35,931 bases of DNA from Minisyncoccota bacterium (GCA_041664245.1 JBAYLC010000001.1:152654-188584); one strand, 5' to 3'; counted from the first letter of the stretch, positions 13,318 to 27,827 are shown. Notes: a model not told the origin generated them from the sequence alone. Numbers and translations are program-made.

Positions 13318-13390
13318 GCCACCTTAGCTCAGCTGGTAGAGCAACACTTTTGTAAAGTGAAGGTCCCCGGTTCAAATCCGGGAGGTGGCT
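13318..13390 (+). tRNA. tRNA-Thr(TGT)
   Basis: Cloverleaf GCCACCT/AGGTGGC, anticodon loop TTTGTAA, T-loop TTCAAAT; A27-A43 mismatch; CCA not encoded. Confidence 0.92.
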
Positions 13391-13430
13391 CATTGGATTT
13401 TTTCTTAAAAATAAGTAAAATTAGCCAAAT

Positions 13431-13503
13431 GCCGTTGTAGCTCAGCTGGTAGAGCAACTCCATGGTAAGGAGTAGGTCGCCGGTTCAAATCCGGCCAACG
13501 GCT
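13431..13503 (+). tRNA. tRNA-Thr(GGT)
   Basis: GCCGTTG/CAACGGC, anticodon arm ACTCC-ATGGTAA-GGAGT; CCA not encoded. Confidence 0.95.
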
Positions 13504-13603
13504 CACTTAGAAAATCTTACAAAATTGACTCAATTAACTTTATAGGTTAAACTGTAGCGAGGATTATTCCTGATTCATAAATCATAATTATTTATTCTAA
13601 TTT

Positions 13604-13771
13604 ATGGCTAAAGTAAAACGCGCTGAAAGATTAGTCCGTCTAAGATGTACCGTTTGTAAACGGGCTATTTATGCCGATAAAAACAAAAAGAAAGTGGAAC
13701 GTAAACTTGATCTAAGTAAATACTGTTCCCTGTGTCGAAAGCATACCCAGCATAAAGAATCAAAAAAATAG
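13604..13771 (+). CDS. rpmG: 50S ribosomal protein L33, zinc type (below the ORF-track cutoff)
   Basis: 55 aa MAKVKRAERLVRLRCTVCKRAIYADKNKKKVERKLDLSKYCSLCRKHTQHKESKK; sits before tRNA-Trp; palindrome at 13766-13788 after the stop. Confidence 0.93.
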   Translation: MAKVKRAERLVRLRCTVCKRAIYADKNKKKVERKLDLSKYCSLCRKHTQHKESKK

Positions 13772-13838
13772 CCCCTAAGGGGCTATTTAAATAATAAATC
13801 TTGATTTGGTAAGTCGGAGAAAGTAATATAGAAACATT

Positions 13839-13909
13839 GGGAGTTTAGTTAAGTGGTATAACTGCGGTCTCCAAAACCGCGATCGGGGGTTCGATTCCCT
13901 CAACTCCCG
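13839..13909 (+). tRNA. tRNA-Trp(CCA)
   Basis: GGGAGTT/AACTCCC, anticodon arm GCGGT-CTCCAAA-ACCGC; promoter TTGATT-17-TAATAT at 13801-13829. Confidence 0.94.
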
Positions 13910-13912
13910 CAT

Positions 13913-14450: not shown

Positions 14451-14776
14451 GTTTGTTATTTTATCTATGTGCTAATTATACAAGACTTATTGAGATTTAA
14501 AAAAGTTTAACGGCGGGCGTTTCCTCTACAAAATTTTTCCAATCCACAAACCGTAAATGACTTTGGTAATCGCAATTTGCGGTACAACTCTTATGCCCCG
14601 CCTCCGACGACTGGCGGAGACGGAACTTTTTATTGACAGTTATAGGGTTTACGTTTTAGAATGCGGCGTAACTTTGATATTTCTGAACCCAAGCATGGGT
14701 GCTAAATCTCGCTTTATTTTATAAAGCAGTTTCCTCGATTTAGCGCCCATGCCTGGGTTTTTATTTTATCCCTCCT

Positions 14777-14785
14777 TTATCCACA
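14777..14785 (+). promoter_or_regulatory. Consensus DnaA box
   Basis: TTATCCACA, 18 nt upstream of the -35 at 14804. Confidence 0.5.
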
Positions 14786-14803
14786 AGAAATTAGATTTTT
14801 TGA

Positions 14804-14831
14804 TTGACGTGTTATTCGCGAGAAGTATAAC
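14804..14831 (+). promoter_or_regulatory. Promoter for the fibre-locus leader
   Basis: TTGACG (14804-09), 16 nt, TATAAC (14826-31). Confidence 0.6.
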
Positions 14832-14937
14832 ATGATTCGGTACGAGTTTAAGTTGGTTTTGGTCTCGTTGGGGAAACCGAGGCAGAAGCGACTATGATTA
14901 TGCACGGCTTCTCTAGCGAGAAAATTTCGTGGTCACT

Positions 14938-14989
14938 AAAAGGGTTGTCCTTTGGGTTTTGTACTAAACCTAAAAGACAACCCTTTTTT
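14938..14989 (+). terminator. Strong intrinsic terminator inside the 5' leader (possible attenuator)
   Basis: aaaagggttgtc-c-tttgggttt/aaacctaaa-a-gacaacccttttt. Confidence 0.75.
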
Positions 14990-15324
14990 GTTGCGAAAAA
15001 ATAATTTTCAAAGGTCGATTACAAAATAATTAATAAAAAACTAGCCAACAACAAGTTTCGTCTTGTAATAATCAATAATTTCATCCGGCACTAAATGAGC
15101 CAATTCTAATAATTTGTTGCAGCTAAATCTTTCTCTCGTAAAAGCGGGGAAAAGATTTGGCCGTAACACGGTCAAAATAATTATTTTTACCCGATTATAC
15201 CAATAATTGGGTAAGGTAAAAAGGTCGCCCCCAGTACTAATTTTAAATTAGTCATGGGGTAAAGAAGATAAAAAACAATTAGCCCTTTAATAGTCGAAAC
15301 AAATTTTAGGGCAATAAAATACAT

Positions 15325-16641
15325 ATGAAAAAATTATTAGTAATATTCGGAGCGGTGACGATCGCCATAGTGGGCGCTTCAATGTTTGCCGCTTTTGAAG
15401 CGCACGTTATAAACGTAACCGCGACGATCGAGAACGCTCTTACGGTTCCAACCACGCCGATTCTTTTTGGCACGGTTTTCCCGCAGGAACAAATTGATAA
15501 GCATTTAAGTGTTGCGCTTTCTAGTTCTTTTTTAGCCGAGAATCAAGGTCGGGTTGATACAGTGAATTATATGATTCGCCAGAAACCGAAATGTGGTTTT
15601 ACAACAGACAACGGTAAGAATTTGATCGGCGAGACCAGGACCGGAGAAGTTGTTATTGATGCCAATAGCCCTGGTGGTTATAGGATTGACTGTGGTGTAA
15701 ATCCAAATCTAAACCCGACGACGGATACTGGAGCAGTAATACAAGGAACATGGGGAGTTCTCCCATCTCTTTGTCCTTATCTCTCAAAACATTCCAGTAA
15801 CGCCACCGACGTAAACGTTCCGGCTTTCCATCAGCCGTTCTCGGTTGCTAATGGTGTAGTTAGTTGGACTGAGGCTGAAGGAACTCTCTCAAAACCAAAT
15901 CAAACTTCGGCTGATTGGACAATCGATTTGAAGGTGCCATGTTTCGGTGGTCATTGCGCCCAAGATTGGAATGATTTCGTGAAAAAAATTAATCCACTCG
16001 CCGATCCGGCAGCATATACTCAGCCAATTGCAAACGAACATAAAGTTTTCGGTTGCGATCTTTGGGTTGAAACGACTGGCGTTAATAGTAAGTCGCGTGA
16101 AATTCCTCTCTACAAAGAAACTGGTGATTCTTCAACAACGCTCGGTCCTATTCAGGGTCACGTGACCTACGATACGACCAGTGCCGGCAAATTAGCCGGA
16201 ACGATTAAAGTGGATTCAGGTTCTCTTGTCGCCGACCACAACTACGTGCTTGTACTTAATGGGCCTCGTGGCGGTGGAGTTTTACCCGGAAACACCAATG
16301 GTCTTTTGGCCGATTGGGCTTGTTTGCAACCTACACCAGGTCTAAGCAACGGCTGGGATGGTTGGTGGGTTAATCAGACCGACAATACCGGCGCAACAAA
16401 GTGTGAGCTCGCTCCAGGTGATGTTAAACTCGAAGGTTATTACAACTTCCAATTTAACGTTACAGGTGCCCAACTCGAAGCAGGATATTCTTTCAATCCT
16501 GCCCTCCCCGTTGGAACGTATAGTGGGGTTCAATTCTTAGTAAAGGATTTAAATACCGCTTTGTGGGATACCGTTCTTGAATACCCGGGTGTTGGTGAAA
16601 CAGACAGCACGCCGAGTGAGTTTAGTTTCGTTGTAAATTAA
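15325..16641 (+). CDS. Secreted beta-rich protein with a SipW-type signal; putative major fibre subunit (TasA/CalY-like)
   Basis: MKK + hydrophobic core + FA|AFEAHVINVTATIE, then ILFGTVFPQE; Cys motifs; second C-terminal domain; no C-terminal anchor. Confidence 0.7.
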   Translation: MKKLLVIFGAVTIAIVGASMFAAFEAHVINVTATIENALTVPTTPILFGTVFPQEQIDKHLSVALSSSFLAENQGRVDTVNYMIRQKPKCGFTTDNGKNLIGETRTGEVVIDANSPGGYRIDCGVNPNLNPTTDTGAVIQGTWGVLPSLCPYLSKHSSNATDVNVPAFHQPFSVANGVVSWTEAEGTLSKPNQTSADWTIDLKVPCFGGHCAQDWNDFVKKINPLADPAAYTQPIANEHKVFGCDLWVETTGVNSKSREIPLYKETGDSSTTLGPIQGHVTYDTTSAGKLAGTIKVDSGSLVADHNYVLVLNGPRGGGVLPGNTNGLLADWACLQPTPGLSNGWDGWWVNQTDNTGATKCELAPGDVKLEGYYNFQFNVTGAQLEAGYSFNPALPVGTYSGVQFLVKDLNTALWDTVLEYPGVGETDSTPSEFSFVVN

Positions 16642-16667
16642 AACGAAAGATTATTATCTACTCCTTC

Positions 16668-16698
16668 TCCGGTTTACTGTCATAGACAGTAAACCGGA
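16668..16698 (+). other. Perfect 14-bp hairpin after the first fibre gene
   Basis: tccggtttactgtc-ata-gacagtaaaccgga; no U-tract. Confidence 0.7.
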
Positions 16699-16791
16699 AG
16701 ATTGAGCGATTTAAGTCGGCATAGTGATCACGCAAGGTCTAATCTATAAAAGCTATTTGACATAAATAGTAAGCGTGGAATAATGGTTGAT

Positions 16792-17316
16792 ATGGAAGAA
16801 GTCCAAAATAGTAATCAAAATAATCAAGAAAATAAGGGTCTGGGAGGGAAGTGGCGAATGAATTGGATGAAGCCCTGGCTTGAAAAACAAGCTGGCGGAC
16901 CCCTTAAAATCCGGGATAAAATAATCGGAATAGTCCTTATTATTATCTTTCTCTTTGTTTTTTATGTGGTTTTAGACGCGAATAAATATCGCGCGCTGGT
17001 TCATATTATTCCAGGAGAAGGCAAGGTGGGAATCAATCCGACAATAGAATCTCTTGATTTTGGGGATCTTTCCCCGGGAACTAGCCAGGTTCGAAGAGTG
17101 AAGATCAATAACGGAATCTTTATGCCGGTGTATGTGATGATTTGGAAAACCGGAGGAATCAGCGATTTGATGACGATTAGCGATAATTATTTCAAAGTTA
17201 AACCCGGAGAAGAAAAGCAGGTTGAGTTCCCAGTTTATGTACCAGCTTCGGCAGTAGTTGATGCAAACTATACCGGACGGGTCTATCTCTTTAAGATTCC
17301 AACTTTTGGGCTTTAG
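16792..17316 (+). CDS. Single-pass membrane protein with an extracytoplasmic beta-sandwich-like domain
   Basis: TM IIGIVLIIIFLFVFYVVL then LDFGDLSPG; start moved to the second ATG because TTGACA (16757)/AATAAT (16779) overlaps the first. Confidence 0.7.
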   Translation: MEEVQNSNQNNQENKGLGGKWRMNWMKPWLEKQAGGPLKIRDKIIGIVLIIIFLFVFYVVLDANKYRALVHIIPGEGKVGINPTIESLDFGDLSPGTSQVRRVKINNGIFMPVYVMIWKTGGISDLMTISDNYFKVKPGEEKQVEFPVYVPASAVVDANYTGRVYLFKIPTFGL

Positions 17317-17328
17317 TTTTCTGCTCGA

Positions 17329-17877
17329 ATGAAAAAAAAAGAAATCGAACAAAGCCAACCGCAGGTTGAGCCAGAAATAAAGGTGGAAACTGGAAAACCA
17401 AAGAAAAAGAAAAGCCCTCTTCGGTCTTTTCTGAATTTTCTGGTTTACGTGGTTATTATCGTGGGGATTGTTTATGGGTTGCCCAAATTTCTAGTTTGGA
17501 AACTCAAAACAAATTACCCAATGGCGGCGATTACCTCGGGTTCAATGTGGCCAGTTCTAAAAACCGGGGATCTGGTTTTTATCAAAGGAGTAGAAAACCA
17601 ATCCCAGATACAACTGAAAGACATTATTGTTTTTCGGAATCGAATGAATAATACGCTTACTATCCACCGCGTGGTGAATCTCAGAGAAAACAAGATCACC
17701 ACAAAAGGCGACGCTAATTTTTCCGAAGACACGCCAATTGATTTTAGTGATGTCATCGGCAAAACCTTGGTTTGGCGTGGCGGGCCGCTGCATATCCCTT
17801 ACCTAGGATCAATTACGGTTTTCATTAACGATTTAATTAAAACTAAAAACGGGGGAGGTACTGGAGGTAAAAACTGA
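17329..17877 (+). CDS. Signal peptidase I, SipW/Sec11 (S26B, Ser-His) type
   Basis: N-terminal TM; ITSGSMWP (Ser), GDLV, TIHRVV (His in place of the LepB Lys), TKGDAN...D. Confidence 0.9.
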   Translation: MKKKEIEQSQPQVEPEIKVETGKPKKKKSPLRSFLNFLVYVVIIVGIVYGLPKFLVWKLKTNYPMAAITSGSMWPVLKTGDLVFIKGVENQSQIQLKDIIVFRNRMNNTLTIHRVVNLRENKITTKGDANFSEDTPIDFSDVIGKTLVWRGGPLHIPYLGSITVFINDLIKTKNGGGTGGKN

Positions 17878-17930
17878 AACACTCCTGAAGTGTAAAAAGG
17901 GTTAAGGATATTATGTTTATAAATTATTAA

Positions 17931-19478
17931 ATGAAGAAGGAAAAATTCGTTGATTGTATTATTTTGCCAAAAAAAAGGCAGTCGTCCCTAAAACGAAGTT
18001 GCCAAAAGAAGGGGATTTTTAAAAAGTTGGTAATTTTAGAAAAAGAGGAGAATTCCGGCTTGAATTTATTTTTCAAAAATTTCTGGGATAAAATTTTCGA
18101 TTCTTTCGGAGAATTTAAATTAACTTTAAGTTATATTTTTAAACTGCTTTTAGTTTCCAAAATCGGTTTGATTTTAGTGCTAGTTACACTCGTAGTGCCG
18201 CTCACGGCTTTTGAGGCGCACGTGGTCAATGTTACGGCGACGATTGAGAGAAAACCCTGTCTAGCATCTGAAATTCGCTCAATGGGGTATTGGAAAAATC
18301 ATCCTGATCAGAGAATTTTTTCCCAAACAGTTGGTAACACCGCAGTGACTAATGATAGCGAGGCAAATGCGGTTTTCTCTCTTTCGAATAATTCCATGGC
18401 TAATAAACTTAGGAAGCAACTTTTAACCTTGAAGTTTGATATTGCTTATTTCGATTCCGGAAATGCGATTATTGGAGGAGGGGATAGCACTACGCTTTCG
18501 GAATTGGCGGCGCAGGCCGATGAAGCGCTTTTAGCCGATCCGCAGAATCCCGACCAAATATCCCATTTTCATAATTTAATTGAGGGAATTGTTACTAGAG
18601 AAACAGTTTCGACCTGCGAAGTTTGTCCAAAGGGGAAGGAGGTCTATTGGTACAATTTTAACGTTAATCATTCAGATCCAATCATCTATGATCTCCGAGG
18701 CAATATTAATCACGGCGATCATGTAAGTGCTATTTTCCGAATTAATCCGGCTTGTAGTGATATTCAACTTTCGCTTGTAAGTTACAAAGCGCCATCGGAT
18801 ATCTTCAGCGAAAATACCGCCGGTGAACAAATTGTTTTTGCGCAACAAACAGGAACGTTTAATGGCGGCACAAGCACCTATTCATTGGAAGTGGATGTGC
18901 CGGCTTGTTATTTCCAAATCGATTTTGCAAAAGGACCGGTAATTGAACACCTTGGTCCAGTCGGCAGCGATAATTTCTACTCGGCTCAAGGGCGGCTTAT
19001 TTCCGCCGACAATGGCGATCCAGGCGGCCCGAGTTGTAATCCGTCCTTAGATAATAGAAATAATGATTTAGGTGGCGAAGCTGGTTCATCTAGTACAGAA
19101 TTGTCCGAGGGTTTGGACTTAAATAATCTTAAAGCCGGCATTCTCGATATTATCCAGCCATTAATTCAGGGCGAAGAGGATCTTGCTCCAAACGATGCTT
19201 CAACAAGCACTGCTACTGTTAGTACAACCATAATAAACGAGAGTAGTGAAGCGACCACGACGATTAGCGAAAACTCAACCGATATTCCTTCGCCAGTTTC
19301 AGATCCAAATCCAGCTTCATCAACTCCAGATTCTATTTCAACACCACCTTCAACTGATTCAGCTCCATCTTCTGCGGCGACAGAGCCAGCCCCGTCGGTA
19401 TCCGATCCAACTTCATCCCCACCGGCAGAAACAACTTCTCCTCCCACCTCGAATCCAGCGCAAGAGGCTGCTTTATGA
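17931..19478 (+). CDS. Second AFEAH-motif secreted protein with a Pro/Ser/Thr-rich tail; putative minor/tip or anchoring subunit
   Basis: Long basic N-region, hydrophobic segment, LTAFEAHVVNVTATIE (18207-18248), GYWKNH motif, low-complexity C-terminus. Confidence 0.7.
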   Translation: MKKEKFVDCIILPKKRQSSLKRSCQKKGIFKKLVILEKEENSGLNLFFKNFWDKIFDSFGEFKLTLSYIFKLLLVSKIGLILVLVTLVVPLTAFEAHVVNVTATIERKPCLASEIRSMGYWKNHPDQRIFSQTVGNTAVTNDSEANAVFSLSNNSMANKLRKQLLTLKFDIAYFDSGNAIIGGGDSTTLSELAAQADEALLADPQNPDQISHFHNLIEGIVTRETVSTCEVCPKGKEVYWYNFNVNHSDPIIYDLRGNINHGDHVSAIFRINPACSDIQLSLVSYKAPSDIFSENTAGEQIVFAQQTGTFNGGTSTYSLEVDVPACYFQIDFAKGPVIEHLGPVGSDNFYSAQGRLISADNGDPGGPSCNPSLDNRNNDLGGEAGSSSTELSEGLDLNNLKAGILDIIQPLIQGEEDLAPNDASTSTATVSTTIINESSEATTTISENSTDIPSPVSDPNPASSTPDSISTPPSTDSAPSSAATEPAPSVSDPTSSPPAETTSPPTSNPAQEAAL

Positions 19479-19537: not shown

Positions 19538-20467
19538 ATGAAACGAGCCCTAACGTTAATTCTTGTTGTGGCGGCGATCGGAGCTGCAATTTTTTTATTT
19601 CGCAGCGAGCTAGGAAATTTTCTTGCGCGACTTGAAAGCCGAATTCTTCCTTGTGTGAAACCTATTACCTACACCATCGGTTCATTTGATTCACGATTTG
19701 GCATATCAAAACAAACTTTTTTGAGCGCGGTAGCAGAGGCTGAAGCAATATGGGAAAAACCCGTTGAAAAAAATCTTTTTGCACACGAAGCAAACGGAAA
19801 TATAAAAATAAATCTAATATATGATTTCCGGCAAGAAGCAACACAGAAATTGATGGCGCTGGGAATCGTTGTTGGCGACAATAAAGCGTCATATAGCGAA
19901 ATTAAATCGAAATACGATGCTATGCAGGCTGATTATATAAAGCAAAAATCTGTATATAATACTCGGGTTGCGGTATTTCAAAATCGTGAAAGCGCATACG
20001 AAACAACAGTAACGCATTGGAATAAACAGGGTCGCACGACGCGTGATACTTATGACCAACTAAGTGCCGAAAAGGCATCGCTTGTGGCGGAAGCGGCGGC
20101 GATCAATATTCTCCAAACAAATCTCAACACCGAAGCTGCGAATATTAATGCAATTGTAGTTGCCCTAAATCGTCTTGCTGCTGAATTGAATCTAAGCGTC
20201 GATCAATTTAACATGGTCGGACAAGAACGTGGTGCGGAATTTGAAGAGGGTATCTACAAAAGTAGCGTAAGTGGTGAAGAGATAGATATTTATCAATTTG
20301 ATACAAAAACGAGATTAGTGCGTGTGTTGGCGCACGAACTTGGCCACGCCTTAGGGCTGCCACACGTTTTGGATTCGAAAGCAATCATGTACCGATTAAA
20401 TGGAAGTACCAATGAAAATCTCACGGCAGCTGATCTTGCGGAGCTTAAAAAGCACTGCGGTTTATGA
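19538..20467 (+). CDS. Matrixin-like (M10/metzincin) zinc metalloprotease with a coiled-coil insert
   Basis: N-terminal hydrophobic anchor; AHELGHALGLPH (HExxHxxGxxH) and Met-turn AIMY. Confidence 0.85.
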   Translation: MKRALTLILVVAAIGAAIFLFRSELGNFLARLESRILPCVKPITYTIGSFDSRFGISKQTFLSAVAEAEAIWEKPVEKNLFAHEANGNIKINLIYDFRQEATQKLMALGIVVGDNKASYSEIKSKYDAMQADYIKQKSVYNTRVAVFQNRESAYETTVTHWNKQGRTTRDTYDQLSAEKASLVAEAAAINILQTNLNTEAANINAIVVALNRLAAELNLSVDQFNMVGQERGAEFEEGIYKSSVSGEEIDIYQFDTKTRLVRVLAHELGHALGLPHVLDSKAIMYRLNGSTNENLTAADLAELKKHCGL

Positions 20468-22347: not shown

Positions 22348-22419
22348 GGGCGTTTAGCTCAGTGGTAGAGCGCTTCGTTCACATCGAAGAGGTCGCTGGT
22401 CCGATCCCAGCAACGCCCA
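22348..22419 (+). tRNA. tRNA-Val(CAC)
   Basis: GGGCGTT/AACGCCC, CTTCG-TTCACAT-CGAAG; T-loop reads TCCGATC. Confidence 0.9.
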
Positions 22420-22504
22420 CTAATAATAACTATTGACATTTATCATAAGTTAGATTAGAATACAGCTAGTAATTTTGGCCATAACTTTTTTGGAGGAAAT
22501 AAAA

Positions 22505-22900
22505 GTGAAAAGAGTTTCGAATGGAAAGGGCTTCACCTTACTTGAATTGATCATCGGAGTTATTGTCGTCGGCGTCATTAGCGCTCTAGTCGTTACCCGC
22601 TTTACGAATGCGGCTAGGGAGGTAAGGGTCAAAACAACGCTGACGAAAATCTATCTCAAACAGCAAGATTACCAAGCGAGTAATGGCACCTACTGGATTT
22701 CAGGAGGTACAGTAGCTAGCTCGTCTAATAGGCGCGCCTTTAGTCCGATCGATGTTGAAATTGACACGTCGGATATCTATGTGTATCACTTCAAATACGA
22801 AGGTGTCTCTAGTTTTGTTTGCGAAGCCATCGACAGCACTAATGCCGATACTTGGGTCGTTGATCAAAAAGGAGTGCTTGCTCATTTTCTCAAGAAATGA
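22505..22900 (+). CDS. Type IV pilin-like protein (class III signal peptide)
   Basis: GTG start with SD GGAGG; KG|FTLLELIIGVIVVGVISAL; promoter TTGACA-17-TAGAAT at 22433-22461. Confidence 0.85.
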   Translation: MKRVSNGKGFTLLELIIGVIVVGVISALVVTRFTNAAREVRVKTTLTKIYLKQQDYQASNGTYWISGGTVASSSNRRAFSPIDVEIDTSDIYVYHFKYEGVSSFVCEAIDSTNADTWVVDQKGVLAHFLKK

Positions 22901-27750: not shown

Positions 27751-27822
27751 GGCCTCATCGTCTAGTGGCTAGGACGGCGCCCTCTCACGGCGCAAACAGG
27801 GGTTCAATTCCCCTTGAGGCTA
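27751..27822 (+). tRNA. tRNA-Glu(CTC)
   Basis: GGCCTCA/TGAGGCT, GCGCC-CTCTCAC-GGCGC, T-loop TTCAATT. Confidence 0.92.
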
Positions 27823-27827
27823 CATAC

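Follow-up and report, generated by a model that had tools for sequence, protein, structure and literature searches.

Four genes in a 35,931-nucleotide stretch of the genome of a Minisyncoccota bacterium (GCA_041664245.1, JBAYLC010000001.1:152654-188584; hereafter, the window) belong to an obligatory genetic module of the candidate phyla radiation (CPR), which consists of an S26B signal peptidase, a small membrane protein, and a set of exported proteins with a common, invariant strand at the signal peptide junction. The genes, designated p1 to p4, are all located on the plus strand and are separated by short gaps (15325-19478; Table 1); p1 and p4 encode the exported proteins, p2 the membrane protein, and p3 the peptidase. 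The signal peptides of the exported proteins end in ...[F/L]-[A/S]-A-[F/Y]-E-A-H-V-[I/V]-N-V-T-A. The mechanism that we favour, and to which we give even chances by analogy with known systems, is that the strand exposed by cleavage would insert into the next p1 molecule to build a fibre, which p4 would initiate or anchor and p2 would organise, with the C-terminal domains of the subunits acting as adhesins.

The coordinates and lengths of the four open reading frames (ORFs) agree with the first-pass annotation, which had described four co-oriented genes with a membrane-anchored protein and a signal peptidase lying between two secreted proteins; the two inner products proved to be a single-pass protein with an immunoglobulin (Ig)-like ectodomain and an S26B peptidase, respectively. 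Each of the four proteins contains one hydrophobic segment, which in p1 and p4 is positioned immediately ahead of the shared motif. The motif reads AFEAHVINVTATIE in p1 (15391-15432), and its common consensus with the p4 copy is AFEAHV[I/V]NVTATIE. In a six-frame translation of the window, AFEAHVINVTATIE and AFEAHVVNVTATIE are the sole two occurrences. The only significant segment in a pairwise BLASTP comparison of p1 and p4 was the N-terminal stretch (17/36 identical, E = 3e-5), in keeping with the earlier statement that the two proteins share almost only this 14-residue segment. The corresponding 42-nt segments differ at eight positions, representing six synonymous third-position changes and an ATA>GTC change (Ile>Val). 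Because these differences are almost all synonymous, the identity is maintained by selection at the peptide level and not by recent gene conversion.

The same strand is conserved throughout the family. In alignments of 49 and 56 p1-family members, the pattern A-F-E-A-H-x-x-N-V-x-A-x-I-E-N-A is invariant, which corresponds to p1 residues A23, E25, A26, H27, N30, V31, A33, I35, E36, N37, and A38 (p1 residues 28-39, inside the shared strand, are VINVTATIENAL). Among 187 distinct proteins, the strand is nearly invariant, and the bodies that follow it are either approximately 55% identical or unrelated. The strand also contains an N-x-[ST] sequon (N30-V31-T32 at 15412-15420 in p1 and 18228-18236 in p4), at which the 187 proteins contain N in 185 and D in 2 cases and T in 182 and S in 5 cases. 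N-glycosylation of the strand is therefore a possibility at the sequence level and, if present, would bear on the donor-strand model.

The residues preceding the F/Y of the FEAH motif (F24 in p1) are similarly constrained in the 187 proteins. The residue immediately before it is A in 184 and G in 3, the position -2 from it is A in 95 and S in 75, the position -3 is F in 123, L in 29, and M in 15, and the position -5 is Pro in 109. Cleavage of p1 is predicted at [A/S]|A-F-E-A-H or at A|F-E-A-H (A22|A23 or A23|F24), both of which are compatible with a type I signal peptidase site. The former option mirrors the cleavage of TasA at TWA|AFND in Bacillus subtilis, and we confirmed that the mature chain A in the TasA fibre structure 8AUR begins at A28 of ...TWA|AFND. 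Cleavage after A26, which would generate an N-terminal His, is less likely; the conserved Pro would then fall at -8.

These data raise the question of whether the conserved block is a specialised signal peptide and nothing else, comparable to the YSIRK or TIGR04088 leaders. It would then serve as a recognition or targeting element, and the products would be soluble or matrix proteins. The predicted cleavage site indeed lies within the block, Pro occupies position -5 and a small residue position -1, and the motif is confined to N-termini. To define its distribution, a profile of the leader plus strand (46 positions) was searched against 1.84 billion representative sequences at E<=1e-3, and it matched at least 627 clusters at 50% identity. 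In the best 150 representatives, the match was N-terminal (approximately residues 1-50, extending to residue 74 in a few cases with longer leaders), and the p1 domain was the only passenger among them; the p1 domain body was present in 108 of the 108 listed representatives of >=200 amino acids (aa). Type I signal peptidases, however, mainly read positions -3 and -1, and the 11-17 residues past the junction are nearly invariant even in proteins with unrelated bodies. As judged from these alignments, the conservation beyond the junction far exceeds the requirement of a signal peptidase. Moreover, the equivalent post-cleavage residues of TasA form the donor strand (PMC9674648, PMC10151520). We therefore consider a role restricted to the leader improbable.

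To examine the genetic context of the strand, we scanned one genome per species and obtained 74 loci, nearly all from Patescibacteria metagenome-assembled genomes (MAGs). The gene order at these loci is fixed: one to four p1-type genes are followed by p2, the peptidase gene, and usually another motif-bearing gene. Both p2 and p3 are present in 51 of the 52 loci that contain at least 2.5 kb of sequence past the last p1 gene, which substantiates the proposed co-occurrence of the motif and S26B peptidases across the CPR. Only one locus with ample downstream sequence is without p2 and the peptidase (L033, 3211-4578 and downstream); it has a 1440-aa ORF after a p1-VWA-type gene. In total, 190 motif-containing ORFs were found in the 74 independent loci, and all 190 are on the operon strand; the arrangement of p1-p4 in the window is thus not due to chance. 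Thirty-eight of the 190 lie in the post-peptidase position, where [AS][FY]EAH[VI][IVL]NVTA stands in front of unrelated passengers. When all ORFs within ±10 kb of the 74 loci were clustered against one another, only three conserved families emerged, namely the motif proteins, p2, and p3, and no conserved ATPase, usher, secretin, or sortase family was detected in these regions. In the closest relative (L075), in which p1 is 88% identical, the same four genes are located between dnaE and rplJ/rplL. The window is assigned to the CPR on the strength of its relatives. Four loci with a complete or partial operon are on contigs of 2-12 kb labelled as Gammaproteobacteria or Bacteroidales (L002, L047, L069, and L074); these are probably binning errors and not true occurrences outside the CPR.

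The N-terminal domain of p1 (the first approximately 255 residues) has homologues in more than 1,154 clusters (90% identity), and the named sources are MAGs of the Parcubacteria group and other Patescibacteria. Identity in this domain is approximately 55-60% across candidate phyla, and FGTVFPQE, six cysteines, and several further blocks are also invariant in the two alignments described above. Some family members are stand-alone proteins of approximately 250-280 aa, and in others the C-terminal part is formed by a VWA, SpaA-like, beta-helix, or further domain (VWA in 37 of 94, SpaA_2 in 12, and also DUF642, Laminin_G_3, and SdrD_B). The C-terminal domain of p1 itself is covered only by some homologues, such as P0002, P0003, P0009, P0015, and P0065. 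Most related loci contain three classes of p1 genes (e.g. L005 4854-10699 and L006 8062-14651): one of approximately 450 aa headed by VWA or another adhesin domain, p1a (approximately 260 aa), and p1b (approximately 240 aa), the last of which is characterised by 'IENALFVHP' and a C-terminus of '...EVTDIY'. The leaders are near-identical among the paralogues of one locus.

No Pfam domain was assigned to the p1 N-domain region in any homologue among the matches listed, and Pfam and NCBIfam searches of 56 family members detected only signal-peptide or lipoprotein noise. Sequence searches of the PDB with p1, p4, and the p1 profile also yielded no match. On the evidence of these searches, the p1 family is without a counterpart in Pfam, NCBIfam, or the PDB. 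The p1 protein contains eight Cys in total, a single N-terminal hydrophobic segment, and no LPXTG motif; the six conserved Cys together with the lack of LPXTG would fit a secreted, self-assembling protein.

AlphaFold2 (AF2) predicted a confident beta-sandwich for both full-length p1 (predicted local distance difference test score (pLDDT) 88.6) and the mature N-domain (pLDDT 93.2, predicted template modelling score 0.87). In both monomer models, no secondary structure is assigned to the first approximately 16 mature residues, whose pLDDT is low, and the remainder of the N-domain has a pLDDT of >90. Since the strand is unstructured and of low confidence in the two models, it is predicted not to fold back onto its own domain, as the first-pass annotation had anticipated for a donor strand that is not self-complemented. 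Polymerisation of p1 by donor-strand exchange, as we infer it, is compatible with this unpaired strand, which is not proof of it.

The peptidase p3 matched TIGR02228 (archaeal-type signal peptidase I) with 89.3 bits (E = 2.3e-25, cutoff 51.85) and marginally exceeded the cutoff of Pfam Peptidase_S26 (23.0 bits, cutoff 22.9). It contains the motifs SGSMWP, IHRV, and KGDAN, and conservation across 56 orthologues is >=95% for SGSMxP, IHR, and KGDAN, confirming the signal peptidase with Ser-His motifs recognised previously. The catalytic pattern corresponds to Ser/His/Asp with no Ser-Lys dyad, and a hydrophobic anchor is present at residues 31-57. SipW belongs to the S26B subfamily, which has the Ser/His/Asp arrangement. 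With the Bacillus SipW equivalog NF046067, however, p3 scored only 56.2 bits, under the cutoff of 190. Because the former profile score is above and the latter below its cutoff, p3 is, by sequence criteria, SipW-like in class and a member of the same subfamily, but not a SipW orthologue.

A long cytoplasmic pre-sequence, which is conserved in part, comes before the strand in p4 and its counterparts. Behind the strand, these proteins have IER(R)PC, a conserved 'SxGYWKNH' domain of approximately 130 residues, and an acidic or S/T/P-rich low-complexity C-terminal tail (S23, P18, T17, and A14 among 115 residues in p4). Residues from approximately 70 to 235 are conserved in the post-peptidase gene of other loci, and p4 contains no LPXTG motif. 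TapA of B. subtilis comprises a signal sequence (residues 1-43), an essential N-terminal strand (44-57), a folded domain (72-189), and an unstructured tail, and it donates its strand to TasA and is itself unable to receive one (PMC10151520). In p4 and 13 aligned counterparts, the order of parts is similar: the pre-sequence is long, the shared strand comes next, and a folded domain leads into a disordered tail; the likeness is one of layout.

The remaining conserved component, p2, occurs in 58-59 of the 74 loci, and its gene immediately precedes the peptidase gene in every case. It has a variable cytoplasmic N-terminus, one transmembrane helix (residues 41-68), and an ectodomain of approximately 110 aa, which showed recurrent sub-threshold matches to ASH (20 of 56 members), Cep192_D2 (17 of 56), and PapD-like (6 of 56) domains. 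A p2 profile searched against the PDB matched only Hydin/FAP Ig domains (Hydin Ig at E = 0.0028). Directly past the transmembrane helix, at residues 66-75 (16978-17007), there is an invariant A66 followed by N-K-Y-x-A-x-V-x-V. The 24-residue spacing from this segment to the LDFG turn of p2 equals that from F-E-A-H-V ([FY]-x-A-x-V) to FGTV in p1. A comparison of the p1 N-domain with p2 by hhalign gave a probability of 8%, which is not evidence of homology. On account of the A66-NKYxAxVxV segment and the equal spacing to the turn, p2 could be a degenerate, perhaps uncleaved, strand bearer; it could thus itself be a substrate, or it may act as a membrane anchor or chaperone.

The properties of p2 also allow a reading in which nothing polymerises: the strand would be a docking tag that completes the Ig ectodomain of p2, and adhesins of the p1 and p4 types would be held singly on the surface. 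It would explain why p2 is single-copy and universal while the strand-bearing proteins are many and diverse, and an identical strand on every substrate is what is expected for one common receptor; the ASH/PapD-like fold is, in addition, the one by which chaperones accept or donate strands. A stand-alone p1 of approximately 260 aa without a passenger, however, would have nothing to display, and both the extreme conservation of the p1 N-domain and the presence of two to four paralogues per locus are typical of interacting subunits. Polymerisation is also the rule in the precedents (TasA, Fim, and Abp), and we regard surface display without it as rather unlikely.

Under the favoured mechanism, p3 would cut at A22|A23 or A23|F24 and free an amphipathic beta-strand that is not used by the fold of its own subunit. 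The freed strand would enter the beta-sandwich of the next p1-type subunit by donor-strand exchange, and the resulting filament would need neither an ATPase nor an usher. In most genomes, the filament would be composed of a major subunit of approximately 260 aa, a minor subunit of approximately 240 aa, and an adhesin-headed subunit (VWA, SpaA-like, or lectin-like); in the window, the single two-domain p1 of 438 aa would do the whole job. In a manner similar to TapA or CapP, p4 would donate its strand to the first subunit and tie the fibre to the envelope, and the membrane-tethered Ig domain of p2 would provide an assembly platform, a chaperone, or a membrane anchor. The function is likely attachment to host cells or surfaces.

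Several observations weigh against a TasA-like donor-strand fibre. No match to PF12389 or to TIGR04088, the SipW-cognate signal peptide family, was obtained at E<=1 for p1, p4, or the 56 family members; the comparison with TIGR04088 had been proposed for this locus. A TasA-family hidden Markov model (HMM) built from 38 aligned proteins, all annotated with PF12389, detected nothing at E<=10 in the window and the 74 loci. A Foldseek search of the PDB with the p1 N-domain found no significant neighbour (all E>=0.1), and the TasA fibre 8AUR_A ranked ninth (E = 0.22, template modelling (TM) scores 0.26/0.27, root mean square deviation 16.9 Å). An hhalign comparison of the p1 and TasA families gave a probability of 44.5% over only 59 columns (signal peptide, FAAF/WAAF, and FGTVFPQE/LSNLKPGD), much of which is signal peptide and none of which reaches the domain body. 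The genome in the window has a single p1 paralogue of 438 aa, which bears an extra C-terminal domain; the shaft in most relatives is likely the approximately 260-aa paralogue, which is absent from this genome. Furthermore, TasA operons contain nothing that corresponds to p2, whose proposed role is conjecture, and the invariant E25, H27, and N-V-T sequon are unusual for a buried donor strand.

The best Foldseek matches of the p1 N-domain were FimA (E = 0.1) and an ASH/PapD-like domain of CEP192 (probability 0.89, TM score 0.42), and the weak top matches also included AggA, PapA, and the TasA fibre. An enrichment of donor-strand pilins (FimA, AggA, PapA, and the TasA fibre) among these hits is suggestive only, and the modelled N-domain looks more like an elaborated Ig-type sandwich than TasA. 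The search with full-length p1 returned only generic two-domain beta-sandwiches (arrestin, SdrE, and mastigoneme; TM<=0.17) and was uninformative, owing both to the signal helix and to how the two domains are oriented relative to each other.

It is nevertheless conceivable that p1, like AbpA, belongs to the TasA/camelysin superfamily by common descent and has diverged from it to an extreme degree. The operon logic and the peptidase subfamily are the same, the mature N-domain of 234 aa is similar in size to mature TasA, the hhalign match covers the N-terminal region, and 8AUR is within the top 10 Foldseek matches. Homologues with PF12389 have also been reported in Patescibacteria (Wang et al. 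2022, PMC9245690). An HMM-level signal is, however, absent in either direction, the similarity to 8AUR is poor, the best structural match is of the Ig-type ASH/PapD-like fold and not a jelly roll, and the hhalign match stops short of the domain body. We therefore regard common descent with TasA as very doubtful. The proposal of a TasA-like subunit family in the first-pass annotation is not supported by these results. Its analogy with TasA stands for the logic of the operon and the peptidase and comes close to failing for family membership, the predicted fold being close to unrelated to that of TasA. Likewise, the proposed echo of the NLKPGD turn of TasA in FGTVFPQE is reproduced in the hhalign alignment, but a probability of 44.5% does not establish homology. 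The term 'TasA-like' thus holds for the logic of the system and not for family membership.

Comparison with the B. subtilis tapA-sipW-tasA operon revealed several common features: an S26B peptidase encoded between its own substrates, a conserved junction segment (TWA|AFND in TasA and [ML]F[AS]|AFEAH here), a beta-sandwich main subunit of approximately 234 aa, as is the p1 N-domain, and no ATPase, usher, or sortase. The CPR module differs in its extra universal p2, its six conserved Cys, a fold that is not recognisably that of TasA, and its gene order (subunits, p2, peptidase, and initiator-like gene). In addition, the CPR loci hold two to four paralogous subunits, many of which have VWA, SpaA-like, or lectin-like heads. 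The B. cereus sipW-tasA/calY system is similar in being a heteropolymer of paralogous subunits with an accessory protein, CapP (BC1280). CapP, to which p4 is comparable, combines a beta-rich N-domain and a long signal peptide with a C-domain of repetitive sequence that holds it at the cell wall; however, it is a DUF4047 protein confined to the B. cereus group, and neither p4 nor p2 showed any sequence relation to it. AbpA/AbpB of Pyrobaculum calidifontis form chaperone-free donor-strand filaments that are processed by signal peptidase I and have a larger TapA-like partner gene (PMC9245690). The CPR system would resemble these and other archaeal donor-strand filaments in assembly principle. Structure and profile comparisons tie AbpA to TasA, and the AbpA operon has no dedicated peptidase, whereas a peptidase is an obligatory part of the CPR module, for which no fold link was detected.

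The chaperone-usher pili (Fim/Pap/Agg) share an alternating-hydrophobic N-terminal extension, two-domain adhesin subunits, and a PapD-like Ig protein with the CPR module. In contrast, the CPR module contains neither an usher nor a periplasmic chaperone with a signal peptide, p2 is membrane-tethered, and the host is monoderm-like. A chaperone-usher pilus was not supported, given that no further family is conserved within ±10 kb of the 74 loci and that the structural scores are not significant. Sortase pili with VWA tip adhesins similarly carry VWA, SpaA-type prealbumin-like, and SdrD_B domains on a subunit module, but the common module of the CPR proteins is N-terminal; a sortase-dependent pilus was excluded by the absence of LPXTG from p1 and p4 and of a conserved sortase family at the 74 loci. 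A type IV pilus was also dismissed, as the motif lies past the hydrophobic core, p1 and p4 have no N_methyl match, and no conserved ATPase is nearby. An S-layer reading of p1-p4 was rejected. No paper that we found joining SipW or TasA with the CPR describes the p1-p4 system, and the earlier impression that no such system has been characterised in Patescibacteria is borne out by the literature found.

Compared with the known tapA-sipW-tasA logic, what is new here is the different subunit fold, the extra universal p2, and the modular adhesin heads. We tentatively raise the possibility, for which the chances are less than even, that the system represents a pilus class of their own in Parcubacteria and related CPR lineages: a donor-strand filament that does without ATPase, usher, and sortase and has an undescribed Ig-like pilin fold, matured by p3, nucleated by the TapA-like p4, organised by p2, and fitted with swappable heads, which would be the main host-attachment organelle of these episymbionts.

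Table 1. Features of the p1-p4 locus in the window
Feature	Position	Strand	Basis or remarks
p1, 438-aa secreted subunit	15325..16641	+	ORF; signal peptide, invariant N-terminal strand, ~234-aa N-domain, lineage-specific C-terminal beta domain
p1 signal peptide MKKLLVIFGAVTIAIVGASMFA	15325..15390	+	Cleavage predicted after A22 or A23; junction statistics, TasA analogy
p1 invariant N-terminal strand AFEAHVINVTATIENAL (candidate donor strand)	15391..15441	+	Alignment invariance, AF2 models
p1 conserved N-domain, mature residues 23-256, beta-sandwich, six conserved Cys	15391..16092	+	AF2
p1 C-terminal beta domain, residues 257-438	16093..16638	+	Full-length coverage in homologue subset only
p2, 177-aa single-pass protein, ASH/PapD-like Ig-type ectodomain	16783..17316	+	ORF; sub-threshold Ig-domain matches
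p3, 182-aa S26B (archaeal/ER-type) signal peptidase I, N-terminal membrane anchor	17329..17877	+	TIGR02228, Peptidase_S26
p4, 515-aa protein: ~92-aa pre-sequence with transmembrane segment, shared strand, 'SxGYWKNH' domain, beta region, S/P/T/A-rich tail	17931..19478	+	
p4 copy of invariant strand AFEAHVVNVTATIE	18207..18248	+	BLASTP against p1, six-frame translation

The surroundings of the operon consist of housekeeping genes (secY, lysS, dnaE, rplJ, rplL, mraZ, mraW, and genes for a penicillin-binding protein and a Mur ligase). Genes for tRNA-Thr(TGT), tRNA-Thr(GGT), and tRNA-Trp are located between dnaE and the locus (13318-13910), and those for tRNA-Val and tRNA-Glu are further downstream (22348-22420 and 27751-27823). 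A promoter and terminator scan of the operon yielded counts no higher than the shuffled expectation. Upstream of p1, a non-coding stretch (14451-15010, plus strand) is approximately 95% identical in L075, exceeding the conservation of the p1 protein (88% at the amino acid level). It contains promoter-like sites at 14633-14662 and 14804-14833, each followed by a terminator-like hairpin, and a fold of -62.6 kcal/mol (z = -6.6) is predicted for 14835-15000. The stretch, which matched no Rfam family, is a candidate for one or more small RNA genes. Directly downstream of p4 and co-oriented with it is a gene for a secreted M10/metzincin-like metalloprotease with an HExxH region (19538-20467, plus strand; Peptidase_M10, 1.4e-9); a homologue was found in none of the 74 loci, and the protease is therefore probably not a component of the system. 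The gene at 22475-22900 (plus strand) encodes a type IV pilin-like protein with an N_methyl motif (E = 6.6e-5), which has a counterpart in L075 (16193-16633), indicating that the organism also encodes type IV pilus components.

The CPR, or Patescibacteria, account for a large share of bacterial diversity, and their presumed way of life is one of attachment to host cells. To our knowledge, this attachment has so far been ascribed almost entirely to type IV pili. The operon described here is a compact and widespread candidate for a second attachment system of the CPR. Consisting of three to four genes, it is small enough for heterologous reconstitution from organisms that cannot be cultured, and the combination of the leader, p2, and the S26B peptidase provides a simple genomic marker for adhesins and their variable heads. 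If the system forms a true donor-strand fibre, the assembly principle of the TasA and Abp filaments would extend to a new fold and to a new major lineage of bacteria.

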